Assembly (NCBI GenBank): GCA_036172245.1
Contig: JAYWIR010000038.1
Span: 1,550,001 to 1,614,000 of the forward strand
Length of the DNA: 64,000 nt
Direction: 5' to 3'
Source: Raillietiella orientalis
Lineage: Eukaryota
In this document: positions 8,205 to 57,499 of the stretch, piece by piece
Numbering within the stretch: position 1 is the first letter of the stretch
How the letters are laid out: each line of letters begins with the position of its first letter
Translations under genes and position numbers: made by a program
The notes under the pieces: generated by a model
Told to the model about the DNA's origin: nothing
Databases searched by the model: none
What the model saw: only the letters and a program-made list of their open reading frames with translations

Positions 8205-8237
<33 letters not shown>

Positions 8238-22581: not shown

Positions 22582-22622
22582 GAGACTTCACTTTGATCTT
22601 AGCCAAAAGGCCAAGGAGCGAT
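22582..22622 (-). ncRNA. U2: U2 snRNA 5' fragment (about nt 1-41), truncated and non-functional
   Basis: Minus strand reads ATCGCTCCTTGGCCTTTTGGCTAAGATCAAAGTGAAGTCTC. The U2 5' end, recalled from memory, is ATCGCTTCTCGGCCTTTTGGCTAAGATCAAAGTGTAGTATC, giving 4 mismatches. Similarity stops there. Confidence 0.85.
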
Positions 22623-28320: not shown

Positions 28321-28596
28321 CCTCCGGCGGTGACCTGCTCACCCTTTCGATCCAGCTCCAAGGCAGGAGACAGTCGAGTTCAGAGACAGGAAGACTGCGC
28401 AGCCGAATATGCTGAGTAACTAGGCAGCTCCTGATTGCTTGTTTGAGGAATTCTGAAGAGCAACAGGGTAATAAGGGAACTCGAGGTCTCTAGGAGACGG
28501 GAGGAGAGCGCAACCTAATGCCAAACACTCCCGGAGACGCGCAGCAGCGTCTTCCAGCTTGCGTGGCTGTCGGCGTGGAGTTCGTTGCCCTTGGAA
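26794..28596. repeat. Inverted repeat pair 26794-26946 / 28434-28596
   Basis: Near-identical apart from about 2 substitutions and a 10-nt indel at the ctcct microhomology. Confidence 0.95.
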
Positions 28597-31120: not shown

Positions 31121-33480
31121 ATGGATTCGGAAAAAGGACATTCGGGACTCCAACAGGGATCCGTCCACCTCGATTTAGTCCAGTTCCCGTGCTTCAAAGG
31201 AGTATTGAGGGGAGTCGAACAGCAGTGCCCATTGAGCACCCCGCTCTTTAACTTGGCCGTTGGCTTCATCTTGGGTTGTCCCTTCCGGAAGGCCCATTTC
31301 AGCGTGAGGGTGATCCAGTCATGTGGGCCAATCCAGAAGAGGGGCTACGCACTCGTCACAGACTCTGAGGTTCTGCCAAGCGGATCGTAGATTCAATCAA
31401 GAGCAGACGCCTAACAAATTCATCTTCAATTCTGAAGCTGCACTGCCAAGAAGAACCAGAAACACCGCCTTCAGGATTGGCGGACGCGTGGCACCAAGCG
31501 TTGTAGGTTCGAATCCCGCCTGAGAAAGGAAGGGCCGACTCCGAGAAATGGGTTTCTAATCCCCCCGGATTCTGGTTAGCTTTGCGTGCGGCTGCCCTGA
31601 TGGAATCCGGAAACCCTCGGATGTCTGGGTTGACTGGCCTGGATTGAGAGTGGTCCTCTGGGATCGTTCCAGGAATCAAGGAGCGCTGGTTCCCTTCGAG
31701 GTTCTTCTCCGGTTGTGAAAATGGACCGTCCCATTTTTCTGGATGGACGACGACTCTCTATCGCGTGCCATGGAGTTGGTCGACACCCCTCTCTGGAATC
31801 GCTTCTTCGGAGTGCCAGAAGCGCACTGCTCCCTTCAGGGAGCGCCCCTCAGAGGAGGGAACGGAGAGCGGTTCCCTTGCAGATGTCCTCCGGAGAAGGA
31901 ATTCCAGGAGCGGATCCTTTTCGGATTCCCTCTGGAATTCCCTTCAGAGACAGCCAGGGCGTTGTCTCCGAAGAGTTCCCGCAGCTTCCTCTTCGGCTCT
32001 AGAGATGCGTGCAAAAACTTCGGAAAGTCTGTCGGATGTGGAAGCCTCTCGGCAGAGCTTTTCAAGCACCAGCTGCTGGGGAAGAATCCTCACTCTTTCC
32101 TTGGAGAAAGGTGGATGCCATGAGAGCCTTCTTCTTTCCATGACTCTTGCATTACAAGAAAGTCGGGCCGTTTAAGAATGGTCTCTCGAGACGCCAGCGT
32201 CCGCCGGCAGACTGGAAAACGTCGGATGCTGCCAAGTCGAGATGCAAGTGATTCTGTACACATAGAACGATTCAGAAAATGCTTCGGCCCTCGCGACCTC
32301 TAGGCAGAGCAGACAACTTTGTAGCTGCTTCGAGCTGTGGACTTCAGGAGATCCGGAAGCTCGAGAGCGAGCACAAGGCACCCTGAGGGCGGTAGCCAGT
32401 CGTGTTACATGTTGCAGTGGACAAATGCATCGGATTTGGCACAAGGAATTTTCAGACGACGGGGTTTCGAGCCTCCGGGCATCTGCGGGCAATCTGGCAG
32501 TTCAGTAGCGGCAGGTCCAAGAATCGCCTCCTTCCCTGAACGCATGCGCGGGAAACTCGCATTGAATTGCCCACGCTCCAGAGCAAGGCAAGCCACCTAG
32601 GAGGCGATGTTCTGCATCGGTTGGCATTGCGCTCCCTGCCGCTTTCTCTCTTCCGACGACAACTGCGCTCATTTTACCGATTAGCTTCTCGACGCTTGGT
32701 TCCACTTCTGGACGAGTCACGTCAACCAGGGACGATGTACAGAAGGCGTGAGAATCAGAAAGAAGATTTTCGGCAGACCATCAACCATTGCACCTGTAAC
32801 TCCTATGGAATCGCGAAGAGTCACGATAAGTTGACCTGAAAGGTCAAGAGGATCACCATGTGCCAGCGGCAGCCGCTCCCCTTTAGTCGGCTCATTCTCA
32901 GAATGCACTTCAGCCTTCCTTCGCAGCCGGTGAATCAAAGATGAGATCGGGGCATCATGCTCGACCTAACTTGCTATTTCGAAAACTAGACGTGAATTAT
33001 AGGAGCTTCCAGGAAAAGGAGGAAGGGACTCTCTGGAACGTTTTCCCGAAGGAGTTTTCACTTCGGAGCGTTCTCTCGATCTCTAGGCCCGTGGGACCTT
33101 CGGTTCCTCGAAACAGAGTCCTGCAGGAAGCAATGATCCTGCAGAGGCAAGTCGATCTTCTGAGGTGGGGAATGTTCTTTGGTCGCATCCGGAACTCCTG
33201 CTTGATCTATTGAGAACATCGCTTGGCTTACTTCCAGTATGGTGCATATCAAAGCAACCCCAAACACCAAAATTCCGAACAATAAAAAGCCCGACAGATC
33301 CTAAAAACATATTAGAAATTAAAATAATAATATGTATGTTAAAATAAATTTGCATATTGATCTATATGTAAGTATATATGTTAATAATAAGTACATATAG
33401 TAATTTTATAATCTTTGCAATATATATTATTCTATGAATTAATCTATACAGAAATATACATATTAACATATATGTGTTTA
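31121..33480 (+). mobile_element. Degenerate Utopia/NeSL-like retrotransposon(s), RT to 3' UTR
   Basis: RGVEQQCPLSTPLFNLAV is a clear GVxQGCPLSPxLFN RT motif. The C-terminus reads ARPNLLF...VGPSVPRNRVLQ..RIRNSCLIY*EHR. AT-rich 3' UTR at 33280-33480. Probably two nested copies. Confidence 0.72.
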
Positions 33481-33559
33481 TTTTCAAGAAGGATTTTGGG
33501 TTGTTCGGTCTTTCGAACCGAATTCCATTGGGTAAGTTCCCAGCCCTACCACCTCCTAG

Positions 33560-34800: not shown

Positions 34801-35079
34801 TCATCTAAAGTGATGTTTGCAGCTGGAAGACCGATGCGTGCATGAACGAAGCCAAAGGGACCGCTCTCGCCAGGGGCACAACCAGGAGGAGAGGAGGTCA
34901 ATGAGGGACAGTCAACAGACTAATAAGTGGGAAATGAGGTGGGCCAACCCATGTTGAGGGCACCCCTGTCGGGTATTGGGCGAGCCGACCTGCTCGCAGC
35001 AGCTCTTGGTCTCCCCGGTACTCCGCTTCCTGAATTAGACGGCGAACGGGATTCTCCCCTTGGAGGAACTCCCGTTCTC

Positions 35080-35335
35080 TTTCTCCATTCTGGCGGCCAC
35101 CGCTGCTCTCACATCACCAAGGATTGTGTGGGAGAAGGCAGAGGCCGGAAGAGCCTGGAGGAGGGAGCATCTTTTCATGTAGGTCCTATGGGGCGGCACC
35201 ACCGAGGGCCTCGGCAATTCGCTCCCATCGCCGGTACGGGCTTTCTCATGCCGGGAGCACGTGCAGGCAAGATTGCCACCACCACGCAGAGAGCACTCTT
35301 CTTGGGGTAGTTCTCGGTGATGTGTTTCCTCGTTC
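35080..35335 (-). repeat. ~260 bp dispersed repeat, copy 2
   Basis: Reverse complement aligns with 3956-4217. Confidence 0.9.
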
Positions 35336-35399
35336 AAGGAGAGCGCGCGTCCGGTGCATCGGCACATGGTGAGGCGGTCAGCTGGCAGCATGAAAGGAG

Positions 35400-38100
35400 A
35401 AGGTCGAGGTGACGATGAGAAAGTCCGGGGGTGCTCTAAGTTTCCTCCTAGCTCGGTTCATAGAAGACTCGGTCCATCTCTGCGGGCCCTCGGCATTAAA
35501 ACACAGACTGTCAAGATCGTGTTCATCGAGAGAACGCTTCGCCTACCCCCTCCCCATTCTGATTTACCGATGTGGATCCGTTGGCCCACCCACTTCACTG
35601 CCGCTCACTTCCAAGGTGGAAACGCCCCGAGGATGGACGGTTCCCGTATCAGAGGTAAGTTGACCTTCTCTTTAAAAAGGAAGTGCCATTTGCTTGTTTA
35701 TTCAAATAGATGGCCCGAGGCAGCCGGGACGAGCATGGAATCTTGGTTGGAGAAAATGCGTCCCTCCCTCAGTTCTTGGGATAGCAAAAAAAAAGGCAAA
35801 GGAGTGGATGCAATGAAGAAGTCTACTTGGAATGTGAAGAGAACGGGATGAGTTGAGCTATCTTGGTGTTCCCGAAAGGAAACGACTCCCAGATGCCTTC
35901 TTCCGCATCTGGTTCGTTCCCGGAATTCGCTGGACCCGGCCCATTCTCTTTGCTAGCCGCCATTCCCAAATCCTCCAGTGACGTCCCCGGTGCAGGATTC
36001 ACGGACAGCGAATCCTTTTTCACCTGAATGCAGACTCTGGAAGCATCACGGGAACGGGATCTTTTCTCGGCCCCTTTGGGGAAGAGTCTCGCAGGGAAAG
36101 AAGGGACGGGGTCGTCCGGAGCCTCCTTTTCTCCTTCTTACTGCGCTTGTCGCGGGCATTGGGAAGCGGAGCTTCACCTAGGATTCTTCCTCCCCAGAGG
36201 AAACGAAACACTGCTGCGGGTACGCATCCTCACCTCTGGCTCGTTTTCTCGTTCCTGGCCCCATCTTCCTCGACCGTGGATACGAAAAACGTTCCCTGTC
36301 CTCTTCGCGGCCGGATGCTACACGTGTGCGCCTCGCAGATTCCAATAAAACCCTTCTTCGCACCTTTTTTGACCCCTTTAGGAACAGTTCCTCATCTAAG
36401 GCGTCTTTTCTGCGTATTACCTCTTCTGGAGGGTCCCGAAAAGGAACGAGAGCCGGGTGCGTCGTGTGTTTCGAGTCCTCCCCTTAGAACACTTGCAGGC
36501 TCGTGGGCTCCTGTTGGACACAGGGATGACGCTTATGCACTCACAAGACTTGACCGTCGACTAGCTGGAATAGAGACCCTTTTAGAAGTAACCGGAGCTT
36601 CCGGGTTCCGCTCCAGTTGGTGTCAAGAAGTCGATACCCCGTTTCGGGATGCTCTCCATCGTGTCATGTGGAATGGCTCTACCCCTATGGAGCGTCCCCT
36701 CCAGTTCGTGGGCAGCGCACTCCCTTCGGAATTCTCTTCGAGGAAGTAAAACAAGGAGCGGTCCTTTCCTAGGTTTCCCAATGGCTGGGTTACACGCAAC
36801 CTAGGGTGGCGTGACCTTGTTCAAAAGAGCCTATCGAGATGTCGCCGAGCCCGCTCGATACCCTGTCGGGGTGAGTCGTTCCTGAGTACTTGGAGAACCG
36901 AAACAGAAAGAAGCACGCACACGGAGATGCTGGAAGGAAATCTGCAAATAGCAGAACGCTGAAAGCAATTTTCCCATCCTAGGTCAAATGGTAACGATCT
37001 CCTCGTGAGGTCGCTACTGTGGTCTTTTTTCTAAAAAAAAGGAAAAAAAAGAAAAGAAAAAAGAACGAACGATTGTGCGGTTTTACTCCTTGATGCACCC
37101 TGGGAGAATAATTTTCATGGGATGCAGTCTCCTCCAAACAAGAGTTGGATTCTGTGCCCGTAGACGCGCGCGACCCCAGTGCAAGTTTCAGAATTTCCTC
37201 TTCCTTCCCCCTCCCATTTTCCTCGTCTCTGCGCTTTGTAGCCACCCGTGCATGGAATCCCCCCTTCCCTCAGTTCCTGACGCGCTGAGAGTTTCCGTTT
37301 CCATGGAACACACAGCATCTCGTAGATGCAACTTTCATGACCAAGACGAAACGAATCTCATAGAGATCGGATGCGATGATGAAGATCAGTAGTCACGGGA
37401 CGGAGGATTGCATGGACCAACGTAGTATACAAGGAGGCCAGAAGCGCACCGTATCGCAAAAGAATGTTGCACAATGGCTGTTCCTTTGGCCGAGCACGGC
37501 AGCTGCACGGCGCTCACCTCGAGGATCGCGTATTTCCCTGGCCGCTGCTTTCGGGTCTTCCGGAACGGCGTGCTTTGTTGGTTCACCGGGCAGCGGGCAG
37601 TGGGCTCACCTCCCTCTGCATATCTCCTGCCTGGCGATAGTCGCGCGCACATCGTGATGCGGCAGGCGAGATGCAGCGATGAGCTTCAAGACTGGGGCGG
37701 CACGGGTCCGTCCGTCGTGATCGACCTGGTCCTCCTTGGAATGCACCTGTCCGGGTGCATCTGCTCCGACACTCCGCGGATGCCCATCGTGCGCCTCTCT
37801 TCCTCCCCTTTTTCATGCTGCCTATATGCGGCGTTTCTCTGCTCCTTGTCTAGCCTTCTTTGCTCCCTTCCCGCTATTGGACATGGGAGTCACCGCGCTC
37901 TCCCGTTCTCACGACATGTGCGCTTACCCGCCACCCCAACCCCGCCCTACATCTGATGGCACCCAGCGCGGGTAGAGAGCAGTCGAAAGCATCCAAGCTG
38001 GGAGAGGCTGCTTCGAGAGCTCCCGCGGGGTGCACGCCGTTCATTCAGCTTCTCCTGCACACCCGTCCGGTGCGCGTGCGGTATCGAGATCCAAGCGGTA
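35400..38100 (+). mobile_element. Degenerate non-LTR retrotransposon (RT to finger)
   Basis: Ordered remnants FAGPGP, LWK..QGKKG..RP, SPEETK..G, AGIETLL and a YLG-like motif. Heavily frameshifted. Confidence 0.5.
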
Positions 38101-39899: not shown

Positions 39900-40500
39900 T
39901 CGAAAATAGTTTTCCGATGTTTCTTGAGCTTCCAGCAGGCAGCTCCAGGTGCATTCGCGCACGTGCCATTTTTTTAAAAAATTCACCAACCGATTGAGGG
40001 CTCAACAGGGTGGTGTTATCTGGTTTGACATCAGGGCAAACTGATTTGCCTCCATTCTGAACCCTCCGTCTCGTACCATGGAACTCGTGGATAGATCATG
40101 TCTTTCCAGAGTGCAGTGAAGCGTGCCTCTCCCTTCAGGGAACGCCCCTATTGAGAAAATTCGGAAGCGTCTCTTCGGGGTTCTCTTCAGAGGAGGAAAC
40201 CAGGAGCGGTTCCCTTGCGGGTGCTCTCCATAGAAAAAATGGAGCGGATCCCTTCAGGGGTCCGCTCCATTTTTTCTCCATTATTTCCCTCCGGAGGGGT
40301 CCCTCCGGAGAGAATAAGGAAGAGGTCCCCCTTTGGAGACAACCAAGGTGGAGATTCCCTTCGGAATGCCCCAGGCGTGAGAGGAACGGACTCCCTTCTC
40401 CGGAGCCCTTCCTGGATTCATAAGGTAGTTCCCTCCCGGGGTTACGCCCTAGCTTGAAAAGTCACACGCACCCCCGGGTGTCATGGACAGGTGCCTTGTT
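39900..40500 (+). mobile_element. Degenerate RT fragment, related to 31600-32000
   Basis: VIWFDIRAN (for WLDLxNAF). Direct nucleotide similarity to about 31775-31960 (cccttcagggarcgcccc...gagcggttcccttgc...ggagcggatcc). Confidence 0.5.
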
Positions 40501-41749
40501 TGATGACCCTTCTAGTCAGCTCCTCCCAACAAAGCAAGCAAGCCTTGTGTGGATAGGAAACTGAAACCTGTGGCATCCAGAGCTGCCACTCTTTCCCCGT
40601 CCACATTGTGTGGATGGCAATAGTGCGGACGGTCGATGATGTGTTCTCAGGTACGATTTTCCTAATGGAGTACCTACTCACGCCCTTCACGCTACACCTA
40701 TTGTTCCCTTTAAGAGAATAGGGAGCTACTTTTCCAAGAAACTGACGTGAAATTCTAATTCATGGTTTTTTTTTTCTTCCGCTACACACTTGCCTCTTCC
40801 ACCTGCGTGCGTGGAAACATGCACACACTCTGCACACATGTGATGCGCCTTCTGATGAAGTAACTAGAACTCGGTCAAGAGCGCCAACTGAAAATCATAG
40901 GGGATTGAGGAGTCGTGATCCAACGTGACCAAGAGTATACGAAAATTGTGTTCTGGAAGGACATGCAGTGGGAATCTCTACGGAAACCACTCTTCGTATT
41001 TCGATAGGAGTTCCACCAACTACCAGCTACCAAATTTCTTTTCATCCCATCCATTTGATAAGCAAAAAGCACCTTCAGTTCAAGGTTTGGCGAAGAAACC
41101 TTGAAACGCGTTCCGGTCATCTGTTTTAATGATGAAAAGTTCCTATAATCGAATCCTATTGACCCTAGGTCAATAGGTGATCTTCAATGAGCACTGACGC
41201 CATCTTGGTTCAAAAGACGTCTTACAGATACGCTTTTCTATTGGCTTTTTTATTTCCAACACCAAATTATAGAGTGCAACTAATTAGAGCTATAATGACA
41301 TCCGACGAAGGCAAGCACCCCTATTTACGTATGTTCATTTTTAGGCTCTTCACCTGAATCCAATTATAAGAGAAAGGAATGCCACATCAGAATATTAGAA
41401 TACATTTATAATTACCTATGGATGGGGGCCCAAATATACTGAATACTAAATGAGAACGTACTTGGATCCAATAAATCGGTGTATTTATTGTTTTTGTGGT
41501 ATACCACCGTTTAGGTTCCGCATGACTTCTTCATGTCTTGCAGATTGCAATCCTCTCTTGAGGTATGGCGGCAATTACCACTACGTGCAGTTCAGGTATC
41601 ATTCAGAATAGTTATTCATCGAAACAAATGTGCTGAATTCACACCTCATCTGAATAATGCACCTAAATCAGATTTCAGTGCAAAGAAACTGAACTCCAGA
41701 AACCTATCAGCATCTCAATCTTACAATAAGCCTTCAGAATGAATTTTCA

Positions 41750-42560
41750 TTTTCTCGAACTTCCAGTTCTCCTCTTCCAATGACCAATGGCTCATCTGAG
41801 GGAGGGGTCCTGATCTGTTTTGCTGAACTGGAACGAACTCAATCTGCTCCAGATGAAATACTTCCCGTTCTTGCCTTCTTCCGTATCCCCCAGAGGGACA
41901 GAACAAGTGTTTTTGGGTTACCTGCACCTCTGCCTGTTCCGTTCCCGTTTGCAAAGCAGGCAGGAACGAAGCCTTGACTTGAGCTGTGGAGGTCTATCTG
42001 AGTCATCATGCGTACGTTGGATCACCAAGCTCTCTTCCACGAGAGCTGGTCCTCCAAATGATTTGACCAACTCAGCATGGCCAGAGGATCGATTCGAATT
42101 ATCCCTTCGTCTCAAAGCTGCCGAAGCAATAGAATTCCTAGCTATCGTCTTTAAAATGAAAAAGGGTCTTTTCATGAGCTACTAAATGATAGTTCTGGCA
42201 AGAACCATTGAGTATCCAGAAACTGACGATATATCTAAGAAATGCACCATGAAGACGTAAGAAGAAATTCTGCTCTTCAGCATGTGTTCATTACTTGCTC
42301 TAGAGCGGATGGAAAGTGTCCTCAAGTGAGTTCCTGCCTTACTCTGCACGGGGGGCGCCAAGAAACGAGCTACGAAAGCTGCAGCTTGTTCCTTGGCTTG
42401 CTGCGAGACAAGGACCTTGTATGCTTTTAGGTAAAGCCGTGAACTAACGGAAAACACTCGATTCAAGAGATGGTTCCTCTGAGGCATTGCTCGTCCTAAG
42501 TCCTAGGATATGTCTGACCTATCTGGATCCGTCTGGAAAGTCCGACGTAACTCATGGGAA
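41750..42560 (+). mobile_element. Degenerate RLE retrotransposon 3' end
   Basis: Weak remnants of the RLE DVT..K..KY, VGxLGxW and SRDIY (S*DMSDLSG) motifs. Confidence 0.35.
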
Positions 42561-42739
42561 CTCTAGCTTCAAAGCTCGTGCCAGCTGAGGATCCACTGGA
42601 CTCCGGTCTTTAAGCATTAGTCTAGAAGCATAAGTCTTCTGCACATAAACCTTAAGCATTCCCTTCCTTGTAAACAGAGATGCACATCCCAAACAGCCAC
42701 CCAAGGTCGTGCTGTTAGGATGCTGAGGACAGTCGACTT

Positions 42740-44700
42740 ATGTAGATATGTAGTTTAATGTAAATTTCTTTCGGCATACATTTCTATTAATAATGATTTA
42801 CATGCACATTATCAATATAATTAATAACATGCATTAATATATCTCATTGATATTTGTTAAAGATTATCAACATATATTAATGTGTTTACTACGTATATTT
42901 TATTTTTGTCCACTATTTCTAATTGCCACTACTGTCTTTTATTTTTTGCAATTCGGTATTTATATATTCGTTCAATTTATAATATAAATATGTATTTATA
43001 TTTTAACCCTTAATAGATATATTGATGATATGTTGATAAATATCAGCAGTTATATTAATAAAATGTATGTTGATAAATATCAATGTGCATGTTATGATGA
43101 AATCAATGTTAATATTATATATGATAATAAATATAAATATTTATAGATTATATGTTAATAAATAGTACTAAATATGTGTGCTAGAATAAATTTTCAATCA
43201 GTTTCAATGGAAGTTTTACATTTTCAATAAACTTTCATTAATTAACCTATACATAAATATACGTTTTAACATACACAATGAGCATACATGCTAATTTTTA
43301 AGATCTTTATGAGATACATTAACCTATATATAAATACAGGTTACATTATATTTGTTATTATGTTGATATTTCATATTAATCACCATAAGTTACAGTAATT
43401 ATATATCAGTATACATAATGAGCATGTGCATTTACTTTTTTATGATGTCTCGAGATTTCTGCGTTCGGGATTTTGACCGGTACCCGGCTCTGCTCCGGTT
43501 GAGATGCTGCGCCTCCTCCACAGTCTGGTACCTCTTCCCGGGGCCCTCTCGATGGTAAGAAGAGCTTCTTCCCACGACCCCTTCTGCCAAAGCAGCAGGC
43601 ATCAGGAGAACCGCCAATAGAGAACAGCTTCCGTGGTAGAAAGTAAGAAACTGAAATTCCAAACGAAGAGCATCGCAAATTGGTGTCTCGTACTTGACCG
43701 ACGATGGATGACCTCACCGTGCAAGAAACAAGAGTGCAGACCTCTTGCTCCTTGCCTCCGAACCAGCGTTTCTTCACCTTCGTAGTCTTTGCGAAACGGA
43801 CGCCTTCAAGTCAGAGCACTGCAAGCAGGTAGACTGACTAAATTTGTTAATAATATCCATGCTCATAGATTTTAAATATACATACATTATAATAATATAA
43901 ATGTTGATCTTGTGAATGAATATTAAGAAATATGTATGCTAAAATGAATTTGTACATTAATCTACCATTAATATACATATGTATATGTATATGCATAATA
44001 AGCATATATATTTATTTTTTAGAATCTTCATAACATATGTTAATCTACATATAAATATATAGAACAAACGTATGTATTCATGTCTTTGGACCTTTTCGAT
44101 ATTCGGGATTTTGATCGGGACTGCTGAATTGCATCGTGGTAACATCTGGTGCTGAAGAGTATTTGAACGAAAATGGAGGGCGCTTCCATGATGGTGACGA
44201 GCGAGCAGCTCCTTTTTGATCCTCTCAAAATCTACAAGATGTCCGTTTGCTTGCCAGCAGCCCAAGAACTGGTAAGAATCTTTGCTCCAAGGTGAAATGC
44301 TAATCGAAAAAGAGACAGCCCCGTTCTCATTTGGGGGGCGAAAAGCGATCGGAAAATTTCCGCCACCACCCCTTCGGGAATGGTGAAATTTCGCTGACGG
44401 ATCCTTGATTTCCAGTGCCGTGTGCATTGCACCTTGGATCACTCTGTCCATGGGAGAATCCTGATTTCATGCTCTTCGAAGAGTGCTGAGGATGGCGAGA
44501 GGGTTCCTCCAGAACGGTTCCTTTTAACAGCGCGCAACAGATTGGTTGCTTCCCGTCGTGATGCACTCCTCTCACCTGCGAGCTTGAAGAGCTCCACGCT
44601 GGAAATTCTTTACGAGATCGGTTTTTTGTCACTTGGTTGCCGTTGCATTGAGTTCGAGATGAAATGAAGGTGATAGTGGCTCTGAACCTGCTTGTCCGAA
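42740..44700 (-). mobile_element. Two tandem RLE retrotransposon 3' ends with AT-rich 3' UTRs
   Basis: 43957..44451 reads SYQFLGCWQANGHL...FRSNTLQH then IKIPN and an AT-rich tail (43840-44080). 43406..43777 also ends VKIPN followed by an AT-rich tail (42740-43440). Confidence 0.55.
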
Positions 44701-46499: not shown

Positions 46500-48700
46500 C
46501 GATGACCCACTGGCTCACCTCCTAAACAACGTAATCTTATTTATTTTTTTCCTCTGCTCTCTCCTGGCGACGGTCTCCGCCAGCAGCCCACCCACAAATG
46601 GAAATCCACCCTTTCCTGACCCAGCGTAGCACCGCGCTTCCTACTGGCGCGTCGTCTCCTCTCCTAGCAAACGTCCTGGGGAGCCTGGGAGAAGCAACAG
46701 AGCCAGAGCGCAATCCCAGAAATCCTTTCCATCAGCGATGCATCTGCAGTCCGGTAAACATGAGCTCGTCTGGCGTGTCCGTCTTCTGCACGGCATTCGT
46801 CCAACCTAGGCTGTGCATCGGATGACACGAGAAAGGGATTGTGGCCTGGGAAACTGAGGATGACAATTTACACGTTGGGAACGAAAGACTTGACCCATCT
46901 CTCCAAAAATGTGACTGAAAAAGACACCTCAGAAGATCCGACATGAGAGCGCAGTCACATCATCCACGAATGTCGAAAGCCCGGCACATCTTCCCGAAAA
47001 CCTCTTCGGAATAAACACAATGAGCACCGCAGGGACGACTCTTATTTACCTCCCGGCTCCTTGGACCAGGGTAGCGACAGGAGAGGACGCGCGTTCCTGG
47101 ACTCCGGGAACACTTCCGGTCCAATCGACCCGCATGCGCACTGCACGACGGGCGGCGAGACCCGGAGGCCAGCGGCGTCCCTCCCCATCCGCCCAGACAT
47201 CCGCCGAGGGCAGCGTCTCCGCCTCCTCCGCGCTTCCAGCGTCGCATCCAGGTTCGACGCCGCCTCTCCCCTCCCCTTCCCCCCCCCCGCGGACTCCACG
47301 CCGTGCTGCCGCAGAGCCGGCGCTCGTGCTGCGGCAGCGCGGGGCAGAGGCAGCCCGGCTCGCAAAGAGGAGGCGCCCTTCATCCCTTTCCCGCTTTCTA
47401 GCGTGGGAATGCCGCGAGGTGCCCGGGACTTTCTCCTCTCCGCCGAGGTCTCCTCGCAGGCCCGGTCGCTTCTCGCCCGCACCCACGCGAGCCGTTCGCC
47501 GGACGCTCCCTGGACGCTTCCGAGTGCCGCCGCAGAAGGCCTTTCTTCGGCTTTCCGGTTTCGTCGCGCTGGCAACCGGGGAGGGAGCTCCTCGACGCTG
47601 CAGAAAACGAGGGAAACGAACCGTCGGAGTTGCTAGGCAGGAGCCAGCTTGTCCGGCTCCTGGCGGGTTGCAGGAAGGACAGGGCGCGACTCCAAGGTCC
47701 CCCTCCGAAGGCTGCGTGCGAGGGCAGGCGACTCGGTTCCGTCGGCCGCCTGTTGCTCTCTCGCGCGCGCGCAGACGTGGTGGTGGCGCCGCTCGGGGTT
47801 GGCGCATGCCTCCAGGCGACGGCGAAGCCCCGCAAGGACACTGGTCTCTCTCTCCAGAGGTCTCGTTGCGCGCCTTCCGCAGTCTTGCTGCGCGCGCCCC
47901 TTGCTAGCTGCGGGGGACGCGCAGGGGCCCGCTCGTGGGCGGCGCACGGCAACAGCCTCCAACTTGCGGGCGTCCGCCTCCCTCGCGCTCCCGTTGCCCT
48001 TCGGGTTAGAGATGGAGGTCGGTGCTGGCGTCTGCGCCGGCTGCGCCCGCCGGGCTCCCGAGTAGGCCATGTGCTCCCGAGTGCCCTGCGTTGGCCTTCC
48101 GACAGGAGGGTGTCGATCCTCCGGCATCGAGCACCGGTTACTTTTCTTTCCGTCTTCCTCAGGCCCTTCGCGAACCCCGGGTCTGCTCTTCCGCGCCACC
48201 ATCCCCTTCCGGAGGAGGAAAGAGGTATCCCGGAAACCACGTGCGGCGAGGAAGGGGGAAGGAAGAATTCACCTATTCCTCTCCCTCTGCGGAGACGGAG
48301 GGAGGGGAACAGGAAACTCCCGGCCGGGTCTGATTCCTGGGGGATCTGTCGACCTCTTCCGCGAAAGATGCTGCGTGCAACAACAGCACTGGATCTTGGA
48401 GATTCTATCAGCAGAGCGCCCGAAGGCGCAAGCTGGTCTTCGGCAGGAGGTTGGGTTCTTTGCCAGCTCCAAGCTTGCTTTGGTTTGTGCGTGGCACCCG
48501 ACATGCGTGACCCCTTCTATTCCTTGATAATCCTCACTCCTATTTCTTTTTTTGAATCCCATATCCTTTGGAAGATGGAGGGTTGCAGGCTCCCCTAGTC
48601 GCCTCAGGCGTCCGCGATCCGAAAAAGGTTCACATTTGTGTCGAGCTGGTTGGATCAGGGAATCCGGACTGGAGAGGTCCTGGAAGACTAAAGAGAGACG
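46500..48700 (-). mobile_element. Degenerate RLE retrotransposon containing the left IR arm
   Basis: Beyond the arm the reading continues RPCGAHCVYSEEVFGKMC (finger) and SQATIPFSCHPMHSLGWTNAVQK (for DVTIPFE..AR..K). Confidence 0.55.
47066..48441. repeat. Left arm of ~1.38 kb near-perfect inverted repeat
   Basis: Reverse complement of 52589-53963. ORF-track translations 47633..48202(-) and 52827..53396(+) are identical. About a dozen differences seen by eye, clustered toward the arm ends. Confidence 0.97.
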
Positions 48701-49699
48701 CGCGGAACGGGAGGAGCTGCCCCTCCTGTGGGAGTTTCTCGTGGACAGGCCAGCTGGGTAGTGCAGGCGAAACTGAGGTTAAGGGGTTCGACGGAACCAC
48801 AACTTAAAGGGAAGCTCCGGGCAGCTACTGGAAGATCGCTCCCTGTGAACCAATCGCCAAGAGAAGAAGCAATTCAGGAGAGGGGAGTTGGGGGGAGGCA
48901 TCAGAAAGCGCTCTCCCGTTGGTTGCCTTAATCCCAGCTCGGCATTCTGAGGGATGACGAATTCGCCTCTTCTTCAGTTGTTCTCGACAGCATGGAAAGA
49001 AATAAAACGGGACGACGGTCTTTTTTACTCGATGCTGTCCGATCACACGGTGACGAATTTCTTAGCTGAGTTGGGCAAAAGGTCCAGGTGAATAAAAAAC
49101 GGATGCTGCCTTTCAGACTGGGAAGCGTCTTCGCTTACAGAGCGGATGAAGCAAAAGGCACAAATAGTGCAGCATGACGAGAGAGACGGATTGTTTGTGG
49201 GGACCGAGATGGATGGTCTGAAGGTGGTTAGTGGTAGGACGACGGAGGATTTGGAGATTCAAAGAGGCGAGGCGCGAAAGGGGCATCCATCTGGAATCCA
49301 TCCGCTTCCATTCTGATGCACCTGACTCTTGCAGTGCCGATCTGAGAGCATTTTCCTCTCCCGAGCGACTTCTTCCTCCTTGCAGATCGCGACTCCGGTT
49401 GGGTGGCATCCTGGCACTCGCGAGAGAGGCGTGCAACCCGGATGGGCTTGTGCATATTTGTGGACCTATGAGATTTTTGCCATCTCGGGTTCCCTTGAAA
49501 CTCTTCCGCATCTTTCGCAATCTGTCATCCTGGTTGGCCGGCGGATCTCGGCTTTCAATTTCTGAAAGTCGTATTTCATTCGACCGCACCACTCTTTTTG
49601 TCGAGTGATTAAAGACCGCCGGAGACCGGTAGGGAGAAAGTTTCATTCTTTTTTCTTTTTTTTTTTTCCTTCTCATTTTTGCTCTTCTTCGCTGCTAGG

Positions 49700-49739
49700 T
49701 ATTTAAGGTACGGACATCAAATTGACCCGCGAGACAGTC
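49700..49739 (+). promoter_or_regulatory. Putative TATA-like box and Inr of cuticle gene 2
   Basis: TATTTAAG at 49700-49707 and ACAGTC at 49734-49739, upstream of the ATG at 49789. Spacing is slightly long. Confidence 0.45.
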
Positions 49740-49788
49740 TGTTGGTTCCTCTCGTAGATTTGTTTTGCTGACCAGCATTGGACTCACC

Positions 49789-52262
49789 ATGCGCTCTTTA
49801 ATACTTCTGGTAAGTCAGTCCTGTTTTCGGATCCATTTGTCGACTCTTTAAGCGAATGCCGTGTGCTGCTACGCAGAGCCCAACTTTCCCTTCCCTGTGC
49901 ATCCGGGTCTCCGTTACCGCTGCTGCTGCTCTCGGTTTGCTCCCGAACGACCGTCTCTGCAAAGACCACCACCGCCGGGACGTGGTGGCCACGTGTTAGG
50001 CGTACTCGCGGACCCTATTGCGAGGGGGAATCGCCAGAGGGCACTCGCGTCTCTTGCGAACGCTTCCGTGCTGTTTGCAGAACGCGTACCGCTCTAAGTC
50101 GGCACTGCCCTTCGCCGACTCCCGCCTGCAAGAAAGCGCAATCCCTATCGATAGGTGAGTGGACTTTGAATGGCCTACTTGTCTGAAGCCGTCGACTTTC
50201 GATGCATTCCCTGCGCCGCCTCCGTGCGGAAAAGCGCCAGATCTCTGCTTCCAGGCTGGGGGATCCAGGAATCCCGTTTGGGGGACGCACACTTGGTGCG
50301 TGTCCTCCGCAGGGGAGTTTTCGCTTGCGCAGAATCCGTTTTTTGAAGTGTCGGAAGCTGAACTGATCCGCTATCCCTCTTCCTGACGGATGGATCCCTG
50401 TCCAAGTTGATAACTAGATGGCATCCGTCGTTCAGATGTGCATCGAGGTCTCTCTCAGCGCTCGGAGGCGTGATTGCTGGCTTGGATCACCGACCAGTGC
50501 GTTTGATTCTTCGAATGGAAGGCTGTACGGGATGGCTTGAATGCTCCTCCGACGCGCGAGGATTCTGGAGTTGGCCGCCTCCTCGCGTAGCGATCGAAGG
50601 AAACATTTCCTCCTGGGATGGAAACTCGAAAGATGGATTTCGGGACAGAAGTTCTGACGCACTCCTGAAGCCCACGATTTCCAGGATCTCGTTTCTCTTT
50701 GATGTCCTCTCTCGTCACAGATCTATTCGGATGAGTTGTCGCAGGAACCGCGTGAAGAAACTGCTGCTTCTCTATATGTATATATAAGCAGACAGGTATA
50801 CACTTGTTCTTGCCCCTATTCGTACATGCCGAACAGCATTTCTCGAAAGAGGTACTTCGGCATGTCGAACTCAAGTAACGTAGCAAAAATCTGGTTATCA
50901 AGCCGTGTATGTCAAAAACAAAAAGTGTTTCTTCTTGGAGATGCCGCCGCATCTCAGTATCTAAGCAAAATCTTCTGAACGTGAAGATCAAGCGCAGTTG
51001 CTGTCGGGAATACAGACAACAGGCTCTGGGCAGTGCGGGGGATATGTTCTGTATTAAATGGACCCGATGGGTTATCTATGCGTAATATGGTAGTGTTTTT
51101 AGAGGACGTAAAACGTACCTCATACGTCATAACAGTAGAAAATGCATTATTTCACTTTGAAAGAAAAAAATTGAGGATGTTTATTTAGCTTGAAGCAGTG
51201 AAAAGCTTTTAAGAGTTCTGTTTTCATGTAATCGATCCAGATGATCGCATAGCTTCACCTCTATCGTGCTCTTTGTCGAAAAGTGTATCTTCCTGCGATG
51301 TCTTCCTGACGAAAATTTGAATGGAACCCAGTCGAATCACATAATCGTGTATCCTGGAAGAAGAAAAAAATACAGCATCCCGGCTGACGCAGGAGCACTG
51401 CAAAATTGAAATTTACCCACAGAGGCGAATGGAGATCACCGACTGCATTTTAGGAGGACGGCCGTCATTTTTCTGCGCGTCGACCGTCGAATCCGCGTCG
51501 CCTTACAGTGATCCGTCGACTTGCGCTCCTGGGAACGACGTGCTCCAGCCACCGGGATCCACGCGGATCTTCCTGCTGCTCCGTTCGTTCTCACGTCCTC
51601 CGACGGTCCGTGAGCATCCGCAGAGGTGCGCTCATGAGCAACAGCACTGCAGACGCGCTCTTTAGGATTCCCATGAGGCACTTTTGCTCGAACAGCACGC
51701 GTGCGCCACGTATGTGGCGTGTCTGTGTGGGGACCAAGTGTGCCAACTGTCGTGCGCCGAGTGCATGAACGCGCGGAAAGCGCCTCGGGACTTTGCGCGG
51801 AAATCTGTGACACGTGGCAAGAAAAATTTACTGAAGTGGTTTTTTGGCATTCCAGTTCTTGGCCGTCGCTGCAGGAATCATTTCTGTCTCGGGAAGACCT
51901 CAGGACCTACCTTACATTCCGATCCTTCAGTACAGATTCGACTACAAACCGGGGGAATCCTACTCCTACTTGTAATGCACCCATTTGACTCTCCACCTAC
52001 TGTGGCATGGCTTTCTTTCTCTCTCCCTTCCCCCTCCCTCCCCTCTCTCTCTCTTATTCTGGAATTTCCGATCAGGTACGAATCGGGAGACAAAACCAAG
52101 AAGTTCGAAGACGGGATCCTGCCCAAGACTGACCTCGAAGCCATCACGGTGAAGGGAGAATACAGCTACGTCGACCCGGACGGCGGCTTCAACAAAGTCA
52201 GCTACATCGGCGACCAGCAGGGCTTCCGCTCCAACGTGGAACTGAACTTCAAGCAGCCCTGA
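49789..52262 (+). CDS. Cuticular protein, divergent RR-1-like chitin-binding domain, 3 exons, 107 aa
   Basis: Exons 49789-49809 (MRSLILL|gtaagt), 51856-51971 (ttccag|FLAVAAGIISVSGRPQDLPYIPILQYRFDYKPGESYSY-TT|gtaatg) and 52076-52262 (atcag|G-YESGDKTKKFEDG...KGEYSYVDPDGGFNKVSYIGDQQGFRSNVELNFKQP*). Phases match and the signal peptide ends ...VSG-RPQ. AATAAA at 52341-52346. Exons 2-3 are strong. Exon 1 is inferred from signal-peptide fit and from matching the architecture of gene 1. Confidence 0.88.
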
Positions 52263-52559
52263 GCCACTCCCAACGTGCGAGGCACCGGAACGAGGGGCAG
52301 CAGAGCGTCGAATACCGGACAGCGCATGCGGCAATGAGCAAATAAATGACGCGACAGGAGAAATTGGCCGGCGGAAGTCGAGTTCTTTGATAGAAAACGC
52401 TTCCGGTTCCAAGAGACGCCTTTCCTGGTTCAATCCGACTCGCCCTCGCATCACCTGGACTTCCTCAGGAGACCCGAGACACCTCTTGTGCAAAAAGACA
52501 CTCGGTTTAACTCGCTCCGGTCCCTCTCAACAGCTCCAGTTCTTCCCGGAAATTCATGG

Positions 52560-54545
52560 CAAGCGCGGCACTCGCCTCCTTCGCGTTGGAAGCCCACTTG
52601 CGCCTTCAATCGCTCTGCTGATAGAATCTCCAAGATCCAGTGCTGTTGTGGCACGCAGCATCTTTCGCGGAAGAGGTCGACAGATCCCCCAGGAATCAGA
52701 CCCGGCCAGGAGTTTCCTGTTCCCCTCCCTCCGTCTCCGCAGAGGGAGAGGGATAGGTGAATTCTTCCTTCCCCCTTCCTCGCCGCACGTGGTTTCCGGG
52801 AAACCTCCTTCCTCCTCCGGAAGGCGATGGTGGCGCGGAAGAGCAGACCCGGGGTTCGCGAAGGGCCTGAGGAAGACGGAAAGAAAAGTAACCGGTGCTC
52901 GATGCCGGAGGATCGACACCCTCCTGTCGGAAGGCCAACGCAGGGCACTCGGGAGCACATGGCCTACTCGGGAGCCCGGCGGGCGCAGCCGGCGCAGACG
53001 CCAGCACCGACCTCCATCTCTAACCCGAAGGGCAACGGGAGCGCGAGGGAGGCGGACGCCCGCAAGTTGGAGGCTGTTGCCGTGCGCCGCCCACGAGCGG
53101 GCCCCTGCGCGTCCCCCGCAGCTAGCAAGGGGCGCGCGCAGCAAGACTGCGGAAGGCGCGCAACGAGACCTCTGGAGAGAGAGACCAGTGTCCTTGCGGG
53201 GCTTCGCCGTCGCCTGGAGGCATGCGCCAACCCCGAGCGGCGCCACCACCACGTCTGCGCGCGCGCGAGAGAGCAACAGGCGGCCGACGGAACCGAGTCG
53301 CCTGCCCTCGCACGCAGCCTTCGGAGGGGGACCTTGGAGTCGCGCCCTGTCCTTCCTGCAACCCGCCAGGAGCCGGACAAGCTGGCTCCTGCCTAGCAAC
53401 TCCGACGGTTCGTTTCCCTCGTTTTCTGCAGCGTCGAGGAGCTCCCTCCCCGGTTGCCAGCGCGACGAAACCGGAAAGCCGAAGAAAGGCCTTCTGCGGC
53501 GGCACTCGGAAGCGTCCAGGGAGCGTCCGGCGGACGGCTCGCGTGGGTGCGGGCGAGAAGCGACCGGGCCTGCGAGGAGACCTCGGCGGAGAGGAGAAAG
53601 TCCCGGGCACCTCGCGGCATTCCCACGCTAGAAAGCGGGAAAGGGATGAAGGGCGCCTCCTCTTTGCGAGCCGGGCTGCCTCTGCCCCGCGCTGCCGCAG
53701 CACGAGCGCCGGCTCTGCGGCAGCACGGCGTGGAGTCCGCGGGGGGGGGGAAGGGGAGGGGAGAGGCGGCGTCGAACCTGGATGCGACGCTGGAAGCGCG
53801 GAGGAGGCGGAGACGCTGCCCTCGGCGGATGTCTGGGCGGATGGGGAGGGGCGCCGCTGGCCTCCGGGTCTCGCCGCCCGTCGTGCAGTGCGCATGCGGG
53901 TCGGTTGGACCGGAAGTGTTCCCGGAGTCCAGGAACGCGCGTCCTCTCCTGTCGCTACCCTGGCCCAGAGAGCCAGAACGGAGGGCATGGGTTCCTCTCT
54001 CGTTTCTCATAGGAATAGCGGAGATCAGAATTGCTCCTCCTGTGAGTTTCCGACGCCCCTCCTCAGACGGATGGGTCACCTGGATGGTGGATTCATGGTG
54101 GGAGTGCTTCCCGCTCAGAGGAGGCATGCAGAGGAGAGTCGGCGACGAACCGGAAGTGTGACTTCCGAAGGGGAGTGCTGGCGGCCCAGCAAAGAGGGCT
54201 CGGTGGCACTGCACAGGAGAGGCGAACGCGTAAGTCATCTCCTCCGCTCTCCGTAGTGGCGAAAGCTGCGGAGGAGGGTGAAGAGACAGCAGGAAGTTCC
54301 TCCCTTGCTTTCCTTCGCGTGCTCCAAACCCCCGGAGCGAAGGGATGGTGGGGATTCCGCAGTTTGGGTCTGAACATGGCGGGGCGTGTTGGCCGGCATG
54401 TCGAATCTCCGAGGGATTCACGGATGGCGATGCCCGGAGGGGATGCCGGCACGCACGAAGGTTGGGGATAGGAGAACTCGTTCGAAGTCTCTGTTCCTGC
54501 CATCGCTCCTCGTTTCAGCATAGTGGGTAAGGAAATGAAATAAAG
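52560..54545 (+). mobile_element. Degenerate RLE retrotransposon containing the right IR arm
   Basis: Beyond the arm the reading continues QNCSSCEFP...QRRH (finger/RH) and PGAKGWWGF (for GALGSW), ending AAATAAA at about 54540. Confidence 0.55.
52589..53963. repeat. Right arm of ~1.38 kb near-perfect inverted repeat
   Basis: Reverse complement of 47066-48441. The ~4.1 kb spacer contains all of cuticle gene 2. Confidence 0.97.
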
Positions 54546-55228: not shown

Positions 55229-55268
55229 GATACACACTTTGATCTTAGCCAAAAAACCGAGAAGCGAT
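55229..55268 (-). ncRNA. U2: U2 snRNA 5' fragment (about nt 1-41), truncated and non-functional
   Basis: Minus strand reads ATCGCTTCTCGGTTTTTTGGCTAAGATCAAAGTGT-GTATC, i.e. 2 substitutions and a 1-nt deletion relative to the U2 5' end. Similarity ends after GTATC. Confidence 0.88.
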
Positions 55269-56349
55269 CCGAGTGTATCCCCCGAGGAATTTCGTAAGGC
55301 CAGGCGTCCTTTCCCCTCGCTCGTGAGCAGAGATCGCATCCTCATTTACGTGCACGCGTGCGCGCTTTCTCGAGTGCTTCGCAGAAAGGAATGCCACTCT
55401 TTCAACCGCTCACTTGAAAAACCGGTTCCGGTGTTGCCAATACAACTCGCGAGTTTGTTGCCGAATCCCTCCCCCCCCCCTCCTCCCTTTGGTGAAAGAT
55501 GGCGGCAAAACCTTGACTCTCCATCGCGTCGTTTGAAAATCTCGGAATCTGGAAAAGCAAGGTCGGTAGCACAGGGAGTGCACACGGACCCGTCGAGACA
55601 GCGTCACGTGATCCTAACCTGGCGCACAGGAAAACCTCTGCACGCGGCCTTTTTTGCGAGGTCTCTTTTTTTTCGCTTCTTCTCAAAATCGAGAGCTCTC
55701 GTGCCTTGAGGGCTGAAGTACCAATCTCTTCTTTCCCCAGCGCGCAAGGACGGCGTTTTCCTCGAGCAGAAAAGTTGACAATTAGGGGAGTCCACCGAAA
55801 GTGCCTCAGGTGACCTCCGGTCACTCAACGACCAAAAGAAGGCTTTTACTGATCCGGTAGTTAGGATCAGGCTTTAATTCACGCAGCGGCGGGGCAGAGG
55901 GAGGGCGCCACCGGAAAGGCGCCGAACAGCCACGCGAGCGCCCTTCGCAGACACTTCGAGAACCCCGCGGGGCCGATGAGCAAGTCCGCTAGACTAAAGT
56001 TAGCGCTCGAGCCCGGGTGTTCCAGCAGACCTGGCCGATCGCGCGAGCACAGGAGAGTTCGGGCCTCTGTTCTCACGCAAAATGTGCAACTTTTTTACCC
56101 TGGGCGATGTGCGTTTTGCGTGTGCGCGCCTTCCTTGTGGCTTCAGCATGCCTCGAGCCATTTTAATTCATGGACGAACTGGAGAAGAGAGAGGAAAAAA
56201 AAAAAAAAAAAAATTCGGAAAAGCGTCACTCAGCTACGTGAGGCTGCCAGCCGCACGTGGCTAACCAGGTTCTTTTGCGCACCACAGACTCGGCATTGGC
56301 GGCCATCTGGCTGCGGGCTCCGCTCGAGCGGTACTGAGCGTCGCGGGTT

Positions 56350-56950
56350 CGAATCCCTCCAGGGAGACGATCGACTCCTAGCAAATGGGTGCGTCGTCGA
56401 TTGTGAGTCCTGCCTCAGGATGACGCTGGTTGGGCTCGGTTGGCTCCGGATGCAGCACTGGTGGAAGCCGCATCACCCCATTGACTGGTTGGGATTGGAA
56501 ATTGACCCTGCATGGTCCTTCCAGTACATCAAGGAGCTGATTCCTTTCAGGCCCCCCACTTGCTGTGCAAAAATGGATCCCCATCAGTGGTCAAGACAAC
56601 TCCCCTCCCTTTGAGGTGAGCTGTCTCTCCAGCTAGCAAGAAGCGCACTGCTCCCTTCGGGGAGCGTCCTTCAGAGAAATTTGGAAGTGGCCCTTCCGGG
56701 ATCCCCCCAGAGAAGAAATGAAGAGTGCTCCCCTATGGGGGCAACCCCATAAAAGTGGATGGCACCTCCGGAGGAAATCACATTCGATGTTCTTTCTCAA
56801 GCGTGAGAAAGGAATGCACTCCTTCCTCCGGAGCCTCCCTGGGTTCACAGGGTGGTTCCTACAGTTCACAGGTTGCCCCCTAAACTGAAGAGTTGAGCGC
56901 ACCCTCGAGTGGCGTGAGCGGTGTTCAGAAGAACTTCGTTAGCTCCTGCC
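56350..56950 (-). mobile_element. Degenerate RT fragment
   Basis: Weak remnants, in order, of the YADD region, QLLD..VNFQ, and HLLGV (for YLGV). Confidence 0.35.
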
Positions 56951-57499
56951 TAAGGAGGCGGACAGTTCTTCAGAGAACCAAAAGAAAAAGGGAATGCTCA
57001 AAAAAAAGAGGAAGAAGCTGCCAAAAACAGTCTTTGAGCTCTCTGAGGGGCCGATCTTAGCTAATGAGAGTTGGTCCGCCGACAACAGGACAAAAGAAGG
57101 AGGCAACTTCCGTGTTGTTCTTATGGTGCTGGCGAGATGTTCGAGGAGGAATTTGAAAAATTCACAGCAAAAAAAAAAAGGAAGATGGCGCCGACTGGCC
57201 TACGACTTGCTCGGAGCTAAACGCGCTGCACAAAAAACCCCAGGGAAAACAACAACCACCTCTTGTTCTCTCGTACGTTGCTCCTTTCCAGTGAGGGGGT
57301 CTACCAACCAATCTTTGAGATTGGGGTACATTGAGCTGCCCACACTGTCCATCCGAAGATCTGGTGGGGAGGGGGAGCGAAAGTTTCTTTCAGGGCTCAA
57401 GAGGCTCCGCTCGTAGTTGGTATAGGGAAAGAGAAAACTTCGGCATTTTAAGAACGCCGCCGACGCGATGTTGGTCGTTCTGCTGGTGGTCCAGTGACA

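Follow-up and report, generated by a model that had tools for sequence, protein, structure and literature searches.

In the palindromes of the primate X and Y chromosomes, a unique spacer separates arms that are near 99% identical, arm GC exceeds that of the flanks by 4-5 points, and arm-to-arm conversion is frequent; at the human Y palindrome P6, conversion has a GC bias and inversions are few, with three among 378 chromosomes (PMC8981503, PMC3723533). Biased conversion accounted for at most 19% of the GC excess of primate palindromes (PMC8981503); therefore, high GC alone does not prove GC-biased conversion. In Drosophila, staggered single-strand breaks flank an inversion with inverted duplications of single-copy DNA (PMC3355041), and conversion between neighbouring repeats (Alu) works within about 10 kb (PMC8230782). 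Among the RLE non-LTR retrotransposons, R2 has a variant of the PD-(D/E)xK endonuclease core, and the spacing CX2-3CX7-8HX4C defines the LINE zinc knuckle (PMC5678591).

We analysed a window of 64,000 nucleotides from Raillietiella orientalis (contig JAYWIR010000038.1, positions 1,550,001 to 1,614,000), which contains a palindrome that resembles those of the primate X and Y in its arm identity, unique spacer and GC-rich arms. However, the arms are far smaller (1.4 kb) and non-coding, the gene sits in the spacer, and arm GC surpasses that of the four 500-nt flanks by about 12 points. The Drosophila inversions are chromosome-scale and proven against a non-inverted species (PMC3355041), whereas the segment described here measures 4 kb and its inversion is putative. 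Homogenisation among old L1/Tx1-like copies of the present genome depends on chromosomal closeness, as in the case of Alu (PMC8230782), but the palindrome arms have no recognisable family, and the tracts found in our genome sample are 0.3-1.2 kb long with partners up to 130 kb apart. The likeness to R2 consists of one translated arm stretch with the zinc-knuckle spacing; the arms differ in having no reverse transcriptase (RT), endonuclease core, family copies or match to solved R2 proteins.

Structure of the palindrome and its edges

The two arms (Table 1) were aligned without gaps over 1378 nt each, with 15 mismatches (98.9% identity). The sequence-only reading had reported near-identical, GC-rich arms of ~1.38 kb; both properties were confirmed, and its interval (47066..53963) is the core of 47055-53974. 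Arm GC (0.685) lies at the 99th percentile in a genome sample of 864 kb, against 0.515 in the left flank and 0.583 in the right flank, and the GC step at the arm border is sharp on the left and mild on the right. At seven of the eight isolated W/S differences the left arm carries A/T, numbers that are too small to interpret. Tandem repeats were absent from the arms, Rfam and tRNA scans of the whole window gave no match, and the spacer had no repeat match in the genome sample apart from simple tracts. No 300-nt arm window exceeded a coding-periodicity chi2 of 12.6, and the value for the whole arm (15.0) is at a level exceeded by about 12% of 300-nt background windows; the long ORFs in the arms were put down to GC content.

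Table 1. Features of the palindrome and of the enclosed cuticle gene (positions in the window)
Feature	Position	Strand	Remarks
Left arm	47055..48432	+	Non-coding, GC 0.684; own genome gives just two matches
Right arm	52597..53974	-	Reverse complement of left arm, GC 0.686
Run common to both arms	47497..48203	+	707 nt without difference; partner 52826-53532
Second fully matching run	47179-47495		317 nt, left arm
Inner arm part	48204..48432	+	9 of the 15 differences, GC about 0.60; more diverged and poorer in GC
Spacer between arms	48433..52596	.	Single-copy, 4164 nt, GC 0.522; segment that any arm-arm crossover would flip
TATA-like box	49700..49706	+	89 nt upstream of start codon of cuticle gene 2; putative promoter, inside spacer
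Cuticle gene 2, coding exon 1	49789..49809	+	21 nt, as long as the first exon of its paralogue at 20791
Cuticle gene 2, predicted exon 2	51856..51971	+	GT-AG borders, open frame
Cuticle gene 2, exon 3	52076..52262	+	Chitin_bind_4 (PF00379, E 2e-9) and stop codon
AATAAA polyadenylation signal	52341..52346	+	250 nt before right arm
C-x3-C-x7-H-x4-C spacing in translated arm	53665..53718	+	Mirror copy 47311-47364, minus strand

The arm ends are sharp, and the flanks are unrelated outside and nearly so inside. Both outer flanks had been read as continuing collinearly into zinc-finger and RLE remnants, a claim that was confirmed on neither count: past a T-rich tract the flanks gave no blastn, tblastx or nhmmer match to each other (global alignment z of -1.0 to 1.6 for lengths of 50-800 nt), and none to any repeat family; the quoted peptides are present, but stops or shifts interrupt their frames, their spacing departs from CX2-3CX7-8HX4C, and they match nothing. 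A methyl-CpG-binding domain in a left-flank peptide (E 0.11) was dismissed as chance. The proposed fading of homology at the inner edge holds in so far as a faint tail is present (z about 2 over 50-200 nt, p 0.015-0.06; lost at 300 nt); identity sinks from about 96% to background level over 10-20 nt.

The spacer carries the predicted arthropod-type cuticle gene with its putative promoter and all three exons, as had been proposed, including GT-AG introns, and the predicted product has 107 aa. A homologue search among longer proteins with exon 3 as query scored none. A paralogue with the matching three-exon plan sits 27 kb away, and the gene therefore looks native; it would be a bystander within the spacer. 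Inversion of the spacer by crossover between the arms, giving an invertible cassette, is possible, since the geometry allows it. After such a flip, the gene would still have the identical 1.4 kb on either side, and thus a strong expression effect is not expected. Long hairpin RNA from cuticle read-through, which had also been suggested, does not follow, because the cuticle promoter lies within the spacer and the transcript would cover one arm only; to fold back, a transcript would have to begin left of 47055 and run through both arms.

Origin of the arms

The arms had been proposed to derive from two dead RLE retrotransposons, and apart from one CCHC-spaced motif in the arm this origin is not supported: the ends are sharp, the flanks are unrelated, and RT and RLE were found by none of the Pfam, PDB, own-genome and profile searches. 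No match to RVT_1, RLE or the knuckle was found with Pfam among 118 ORFs of at least 55 aa, and phmmer with one arm frame against 1.84 billion proteins gave no RT, RLE or knuckle match; a protein-atlas query with one arm frame gave no usable hit, a result that carries no weight. The PDB search with seven ORFs gave no RT, RLE or knuckle match (the control query recovered R2 and L1), and the frames after the CCHC-spaced motif had no R2 match in PDB. The tblastx search against 30 RT loci of the own genome (30 of 150 scored, all seemingly APE-type, with no RLE family of this genome among them) gave no match (best E 0.43). Four DNA profiles of old repeat families gave no match, and the best score of a knuckle-region profile of old repeats (8 segments) was -0.7 bits. 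The PD-(D/E)xK pattern occurs four times in the window and nowhere in the arms or outer flanks, the pattern scan being not exhaustive given the variant core of R2. The best non-self protein match in the own genome (E 0.018) was compositional noise on inspection. The arm motif fits the LINE zinc-knuckle spacing and reads outward; it was obtained in 1 of 1000 shuffles and 6 of 619 sample windows (0.1-1% per pattern, with four motif patterns tried), finds no counterpart in PDB, Pfam, profile or own-genome searches, and is without the E-S/T pair that 11 of the 23 sample matches carry.

Arm copies in the own genome numbered two only (DNA, 22-nt pattern and six protein-frame searches), copy counts being lower bounds in that the DNA search scores best candidates only and overlooks diverged copies; this agrees with the earlier statement that the arms are not a young repeat family. 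Likewise, the exclusion of a TIR element stands. Long inverted arms with a gene between them would be accounted for if the cuticle gene had been captured by a DNA transposon of foldback or Mutator-like type, whose terminal inverted repeats are long. However, a search for target-site duplications beyond the arms, covering every symmetric end with offsets of 6 nt, gave none of at least 4 nt, the 22-mer at the outer terminus has two exact copies and no third (three-mismatch matches numbered 3, against 4 for the control), and the gene looks native. This explanation is largely refuted, and we give it hardly any credence.

We lean, with some reserve, towards an inverted duplication of single-copy non-coding DNA in one repair event, followed by short-range ectopic conversion between the copies. 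The source would be a non-coding segment of 1.38 kb that was at first single-copy, and the repair may have proceeded through a small inversion whose break was staggered, or through a template-switch copy inserted reversed 4 kb off. Later short-range conversion would have homogenised the copies; it may be most effective in the middle of the arm and fail near the ends, so that new mutations would survive mainly at the edges. The described central identity with differences at the edges was recovered: in addition to the 707- and 317-nt runs, the nine core differences avoid the arm centre (longest gap, p=0.0125; mean edge distance, p=0.0028; 50,000 simulations), p values that are inflated, as the locus was chosen for its edge pattern. 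Arm-to-arm conversion is therefore favoured, with the locus data being one haplotype. The faint inner tail and the CCHC-spaced motif point to an older, longer homology, contrary to the duplication of single-copy DNA that we prefer.

If the duplication were young and of an already GC-rich segment, without later conversion, the 15 differences would be ordinary mutation plus error-prone junction repair. The 98.9% identity and the sharp ends agree with this, and the genome does contain GC-rich non-coding DNA that could serve as source (GC of 0.68 is attained in 34 of 1724 one-kb windows, several of these being without partner or coding periodicity), but when the terminal clusters are set aside the core differences still keep away from the centre (p 0.003-0.013) and reach 230-440 nt inward from the arm ends. 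Junction repair errors usually extend less far than that; moreover, given the observed S-to-W excess, GC-rich DNA should mutate faster, not slower. We consider such a history quite unlikely. Still less probable is an effect of assembly or polishing, either a real repeat whose centre was made identical by a collapsed consensus or a wholly chimeric inverted copy. No difference is more than about 440 nt away from unique sequence, a distance that may correspond to the reach of short-read pairs, and mis-assembly is stated as a source of false palindromes (PMC7953838); on the other hand, both arms have unique flanks on each side, differ at 15 places and contain no N, unique sequence would not return after a simple fold-back chimera, and polishing cannot yield the 97-100% islands in copies 65-80% alike that are seen at other pairs.

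A stronger competitor, although in our judgement an unlikely one, is that two very old inverted repeat copies (of a retrotransposon of any clade) 4 kb apart were retained in their shared part by conversion, which raised the GC beyond family likeness, while the flanks decayed. The sample shows conversion of this kind at its old L1/Tx1-like copies, and converted LINE pairs fall from about 98% to 55-70% identity within 100 nt; sharp ends are thus compatible with an old pair. The faint tail at the inner edge, the outward-reading motif and an arm GC far above the dead-repeat equilibrium also fit. Against it stand the consistently negative Pfam, PDB, phmmer, RT-locus and profile searches, the absence of PD-(D/E)xK from arms and outer flanks, and flanks that match neither one another nor any family; with four motif patterns tried, a single 1% match is weak.

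Local pairs and GC bias in the genome sample

The census of similar pairs was performed on the 864-kb sample, in blocks. All 33 perfect runs of at least 100 nt joined places within one block, and 12 near-identical local pairs (10 inverted and 2 direct) were found, about one per 70-80 kb, with none between blocks. Alignments of at least 200 nt reached 90% identity or more in 15 of 230 same-block cases vs 0 of 549 between-block cases. At three of the six LINE-derived pairs, an island of 97-100% identity lies inside homology that extends on at low identity, the copies being elsewhere 65-80% alike; a near-identical island in low-identity homology is the usual mark of conversion. Among transposon copies that lie close together, non-allelic gene conversion was reportedly described for Alu by Aleshin and Zhi in 2010. 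The arm-to-arm conversion of the sequence-only reading thus gains support from the edge clustering together with the like pattern at other local pairs, some in old LINE copies, and it is probable that the arms stay similar because one overwrites the other; this process is known and seems common in this genome.

By itself the palindrome is ordinary and small; its value is that of a clean example of a seemingly dense genome pattern, namely, near-identical local pairs, mostly inverted and often GC-rich. It is doubtful, and we put little weight on the idea, that unusually intense short-range, GC-biased ectopic conversion acts genome-wide and makes long-lived GC-rich palindromes, unlike their source, out of old duplicates and dead elements, with enclosed genes such as the cuticle gene in repeatedly flipping, orientation-polymorphic cassettes. 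If so, the palindrome would be one readable case of a system and no isolated oddity. If GC-biased conversion held at thousands of pairs, this genome would offer a handy arthropod system for non-allelic biased conversion beyond mammalian sex chromosomes, and repeat ages estimated from copy identity would be wrong in it. No paper on GC-biased ectopic conversion of inverted LINE copies in crustaceans was found in a literature search that covered few subscription papers.

GC-biased conversion at the palindrome is plausible and fits the high arm GC, which may come from such conversion or from a GC-rich source segment, and probably from some of both. The equilibrium GC of dead repeats in this genome is about 0.41, and the arms are far above it. 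Across six converted LINE tracts the test gave a weak trend only: the W>S:S>W ratio was 43:81 vs 825:1892 (p=0.32), the W>S rate was 5.0% vs 5.7% (p=0.40), and the S>W rate was 5.9% vs 8.2% (p=0.0015).

Arms, spacer and cuticle gene

Near-identical inverted arms around a whole cuticle gene, with promoter and three exons in the spacer, had been claimed from the sequence alone, and both claims were confirmed. The arms (1378 nt each) align gap-free with 15 mismatches, and the 4164-nt spacer holds a TATA-like box and three exons with GT-AG introns and a Chitin_bind_4 match, which when joined give an open frame of 107 codons; a paralogue built on the same three-exon plan begins at 20791. The gathering of differences at the arm edges also held. 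Arm-to-arm identical runs were 317 and 707 nt, and with the terminal clusters excluded the 9 core differences kept away from the arm centre (longest gap, p=0.0125; mean distance to the edge, p=0.0028), although these p values are flattering because the locus was chosen for that very look.

Features of the palindrome and of other loci (plain coordinates, window; G000, own genome, GCA_036172245.1; C, contigs; L, fetched own-genome loci)
Feature	Position	Strand	Basis
Left arm	47055-48432	+	repeat finder, base-by-base comparison
Right arm	52597-53974	-	repeat finder, base-by-base comparison
TATA-like box	49700	+	in spacer
Cuticle gene exon 1	49789-49809	+	GT-AG introns, open frame
Cuticle gene exon 2	51856-51971	+	GT-AG introns, open frame
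Cuticle gene exon 3	52076-52262	+	Chitin_bind_4, E 2e-9
AATAAA	52341	+	in spacer
Near-twin arms	L079:2173-2951 and 7567-8345 (G000:C1 about 3042-3048 kb)	inverted	sequence comparison
LINE island pair	G000:C10 2012473-2013017 / 2030608-2031151		267 nt perfect
LINE island pair	G000:C1 3139292-3139971 / 3141150-3141825		298+167 nt perfect
LINE island pair	G000:C5 1116612-1117911 / 1152223-1153524		1200 nt perfect
U2-like fragments	55235-55268 and 22589-22622; L006-L024	- (both window copies)	sequence match

Ends, copy number and the search for a retroelement

The proposal of two dead RLE retrotransposons was not upheld. Pfam was searched with 118 stop-to-stop frames of at least 55 aa from 45.3-56.2 kb (frames wholly within the right arm were omitted as duplicates), and the cuticle exon alone passed the cut-off. 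Seven frames, including those carrying the peptides cited in the sequence-only reading, had no R2 or L1 match in PDB at E up to 10, where an own-genome RT used as positive control matched five R2 and five L1 entries; a single frame had no match among 1.84 billion proteins. The palindrome region had no match among 30 own RT loci (taken from 150 that were scored, out of 3358 candidates), whose frames suggest a single APE-type family. It also matched none of four DNA profiles built from old repeat families in our genome sample, profiles that do detect remnants elsewhere in the window; the knuckle-region profile of those families scored -0.7 bits at best in the arm. On these searches we do not file the palindrome as an RLE element. 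Members of a family of short, old interspersed repeats (65-80% alike, dozens of sample matches) lie at 56293-57019, 40099-40546, 31591-31973 and 36756-36971, none touching the palindrome.

Collinear continuation of the outer flanks into related remnants was likewise not found: over 3 kb per side, blastn, tblastx and nhmmer gave no homology (best matches: with blastn, a T-rich tract at E 0.026; with tblastx, E 0.11), and anchored global alignments of 50-800 nt had z of -1.0 to 1.6 against shuffles. Identity drops from about 96% to noise over 10-20 nt at both ends; of the gradual inner fade a faint tail survives, with z about 2 at lengths of 50-200 nt (p 0.015-0.06, 12 tests made) and no signal left by 300 nt. 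A search of the 210-Mb own genome with the arm gave two matches, and six long frames match the arms alone below E 0.01; such searches score only top candidates and would overlook relatives that have diverged. The view that this is no young repeat family therefore stands.

Local pairs and base composition

The sample (864 kb) comprised a 264-kb block holding the window and its surroundings and three 200-kb blocks, one from each of three other contigs, all picked by round coordinates. All 33 perfect runs of at least 100 nt connect sites within a single block; they form 12 pairs (10 inverted, 2 direct; two may be one nested structure). Among alignments of at least 200 nt, 90% identity was reached by 15 of 230 within blocks; between blocks, none of 549 did so, the maximum being 87.6%. 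One pair, a near twin of the focal palindrome (779 nt, 98.7%, spacer 4.6 kb, GC 0.68), has no copy in the rest of the sample and no Pfam match in frames of at least 150 aa. Six pairs sit in decayed L1/Tx1-like copies (RVT_1, zf-RVT). In three, an island of 97-100% lies within low-identity homology that extends beyond it (two have flank z of 5-12, and one has a 60-75% tail), the neighbouring copies being elsewhere only 65-80% alike; these perfect islands are good material for studying conversion. The other three showed no such continuation, and local duplication would explain them as well. The pattern indicates that local homogenisation is general in this genome, the focal pair being one case, and it merits more attention than the focal locus.

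On the same contig, 28-71 kb right of the window (C38 about 1641810-1684880), lies a palindrome with 14.2-kb arms (99.3%, ordinary GC of 0.55), a 6.9-kb spacer and, further out, a 1.3-kb inverted pair (99.5%). Within the window, 26794-26952 / 28428-28596 (spacer 1.5 kb, copy-free in the rest of the sample) is inverted: 95 nt are identical, and past an indel of 10 nt a further 65 nt are about 94% alike. The inverted pair 3925-4218 / 35079-35366 (79%, 31 kb apart, GC 0.61-0.64) has a third copy, 88% identical to 35079-35366, some 11 kb beyond the right end of the window.

GC was 0.684 in the left and 0.686 in the right arm (outer 1035 nt, 0.71; inner 332 nt, 0.60), 0.522 in the spacer and 0.515 and 0.583 in the left and right flanks, placing the arms at the 99th percentile of equal-length sample windows (99.9th in their own block). 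Dead repeats drift to about 0.41 (a rough value, with changes polarised against the majority state of the other copies), so an arm GC of 0.69 calls for a source rich in GC or a force that favours it. The proposed GC-biased conversion fits the high GC, but its direct test gave a weak trend. In six converted tracts the rate of G or C to A or T changes was lower than elsewhere (86/1463 vs 1903/23326, p=0.0015), the reverse rate was not higher (43/859 vs 835/14564, p=0.40), and in five tracts A or T to G or C changes stood to the opposite ones as 43:81, vs 825:1892 elsewhere (p=0.32). Twelve of 13 other pairs exceeded the sample median GC (p=0.003), but six are LINE-derived, with a family mean of 0.57. 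Three points speak against reading high GC as diagnostic: GC of at least 0.68 occurs in 34 of 1724 one-kb windows, several without block partner or coding periodicity; the arm peak takes in the outer end, where differences persist; and in primate palindromes biased conversion accounted for no more than 19% of the excess (PMC8981503). AT-rich islands (42501-44000 and 33001-33500, GC 0.24-0.37 in a 52% GC window) resemble each other and islands on other contigs.

Origin of the palindrome, and U2-like fragments

We somewhat favour an inverted duplication of single-copy DNA by a repair event, followed by arm-to-arm conversion. The copy may have arisen by a staggered-break micro-inversion, a kind documented at Drosophila breakpoints (PMC3355041), or by pasting in reverse; the arms, 4 kb apart, would then pair when breaks are repaired and convert one another, with the weakest effect close to the ends. 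GC falls smoothly on the right and in a step on the left, a hint that the right arm may be the one at the original site. An old repeat pair worn beyond recognition is a minority possibility. A translated C-x3-C-x7-H-x4-C at 53665 (mirror 47364), inside the arm and reading outward, is spaced like the knuckle of RLE and APE LINEs (PMC5678591) and is weakly suggestive of such a pair; the motif, one of four patterns tried, turned up in 1 of 1000 arm shuffles and in 6 of 619 sample windows, and the E-S/T pair seen in the sample's true knuckles is missing from it. A young duplication without conversion seems improbable, and an assembly effect more so. Palindromes are known from other invertebrate assemblies and can be errors of assembly (PMC7953838). 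Least credible is a TIR element, which the sequence-only reading had rightly dismissed: neither the whole unit nor either arm showed a target-site duplication, and the outer 22-mer has two exact copies, with near matches at chance level. We do not file the palindrome as such an element.

Under repair duplication with conversion, the structure is best read as a small conversion-maintained palindrome, a known kind, which may work like those of primate sex chromosomes. Crossover between the arms would invert the spacer, and the entire cuticle gene along with it; in the human Y palindrome P6, inversions are rare although conversion is frequent (PMC3723533). The suggested hairpin RNA by read-through from the cuticle promoter fails, because the right arm alone would be copied unless a transcript started left of 47055.

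The U2-like sequence (34-45 nt), which we take to be the 5' end of U2 snRNA, had no Rfam match at gathering score and was present at 40 of 40 scored places, the best 40 of 64 candidates genome-wide. Flanks are mutually unrelated, and short local duplications, direct or inverted, border many of the copies; the fragments resemble U2 pseudogenes that were truncated, or inserts from templated repair. At 22452-22600, just downstream of cuticle gene 1, lie a direct copy of a piece of its last exon (46 nt, 85%) and next, beside a U2-like fragment, a minus-strand stretch resembling the start of its second exon, possibly remnants of a rearranged paralogue.
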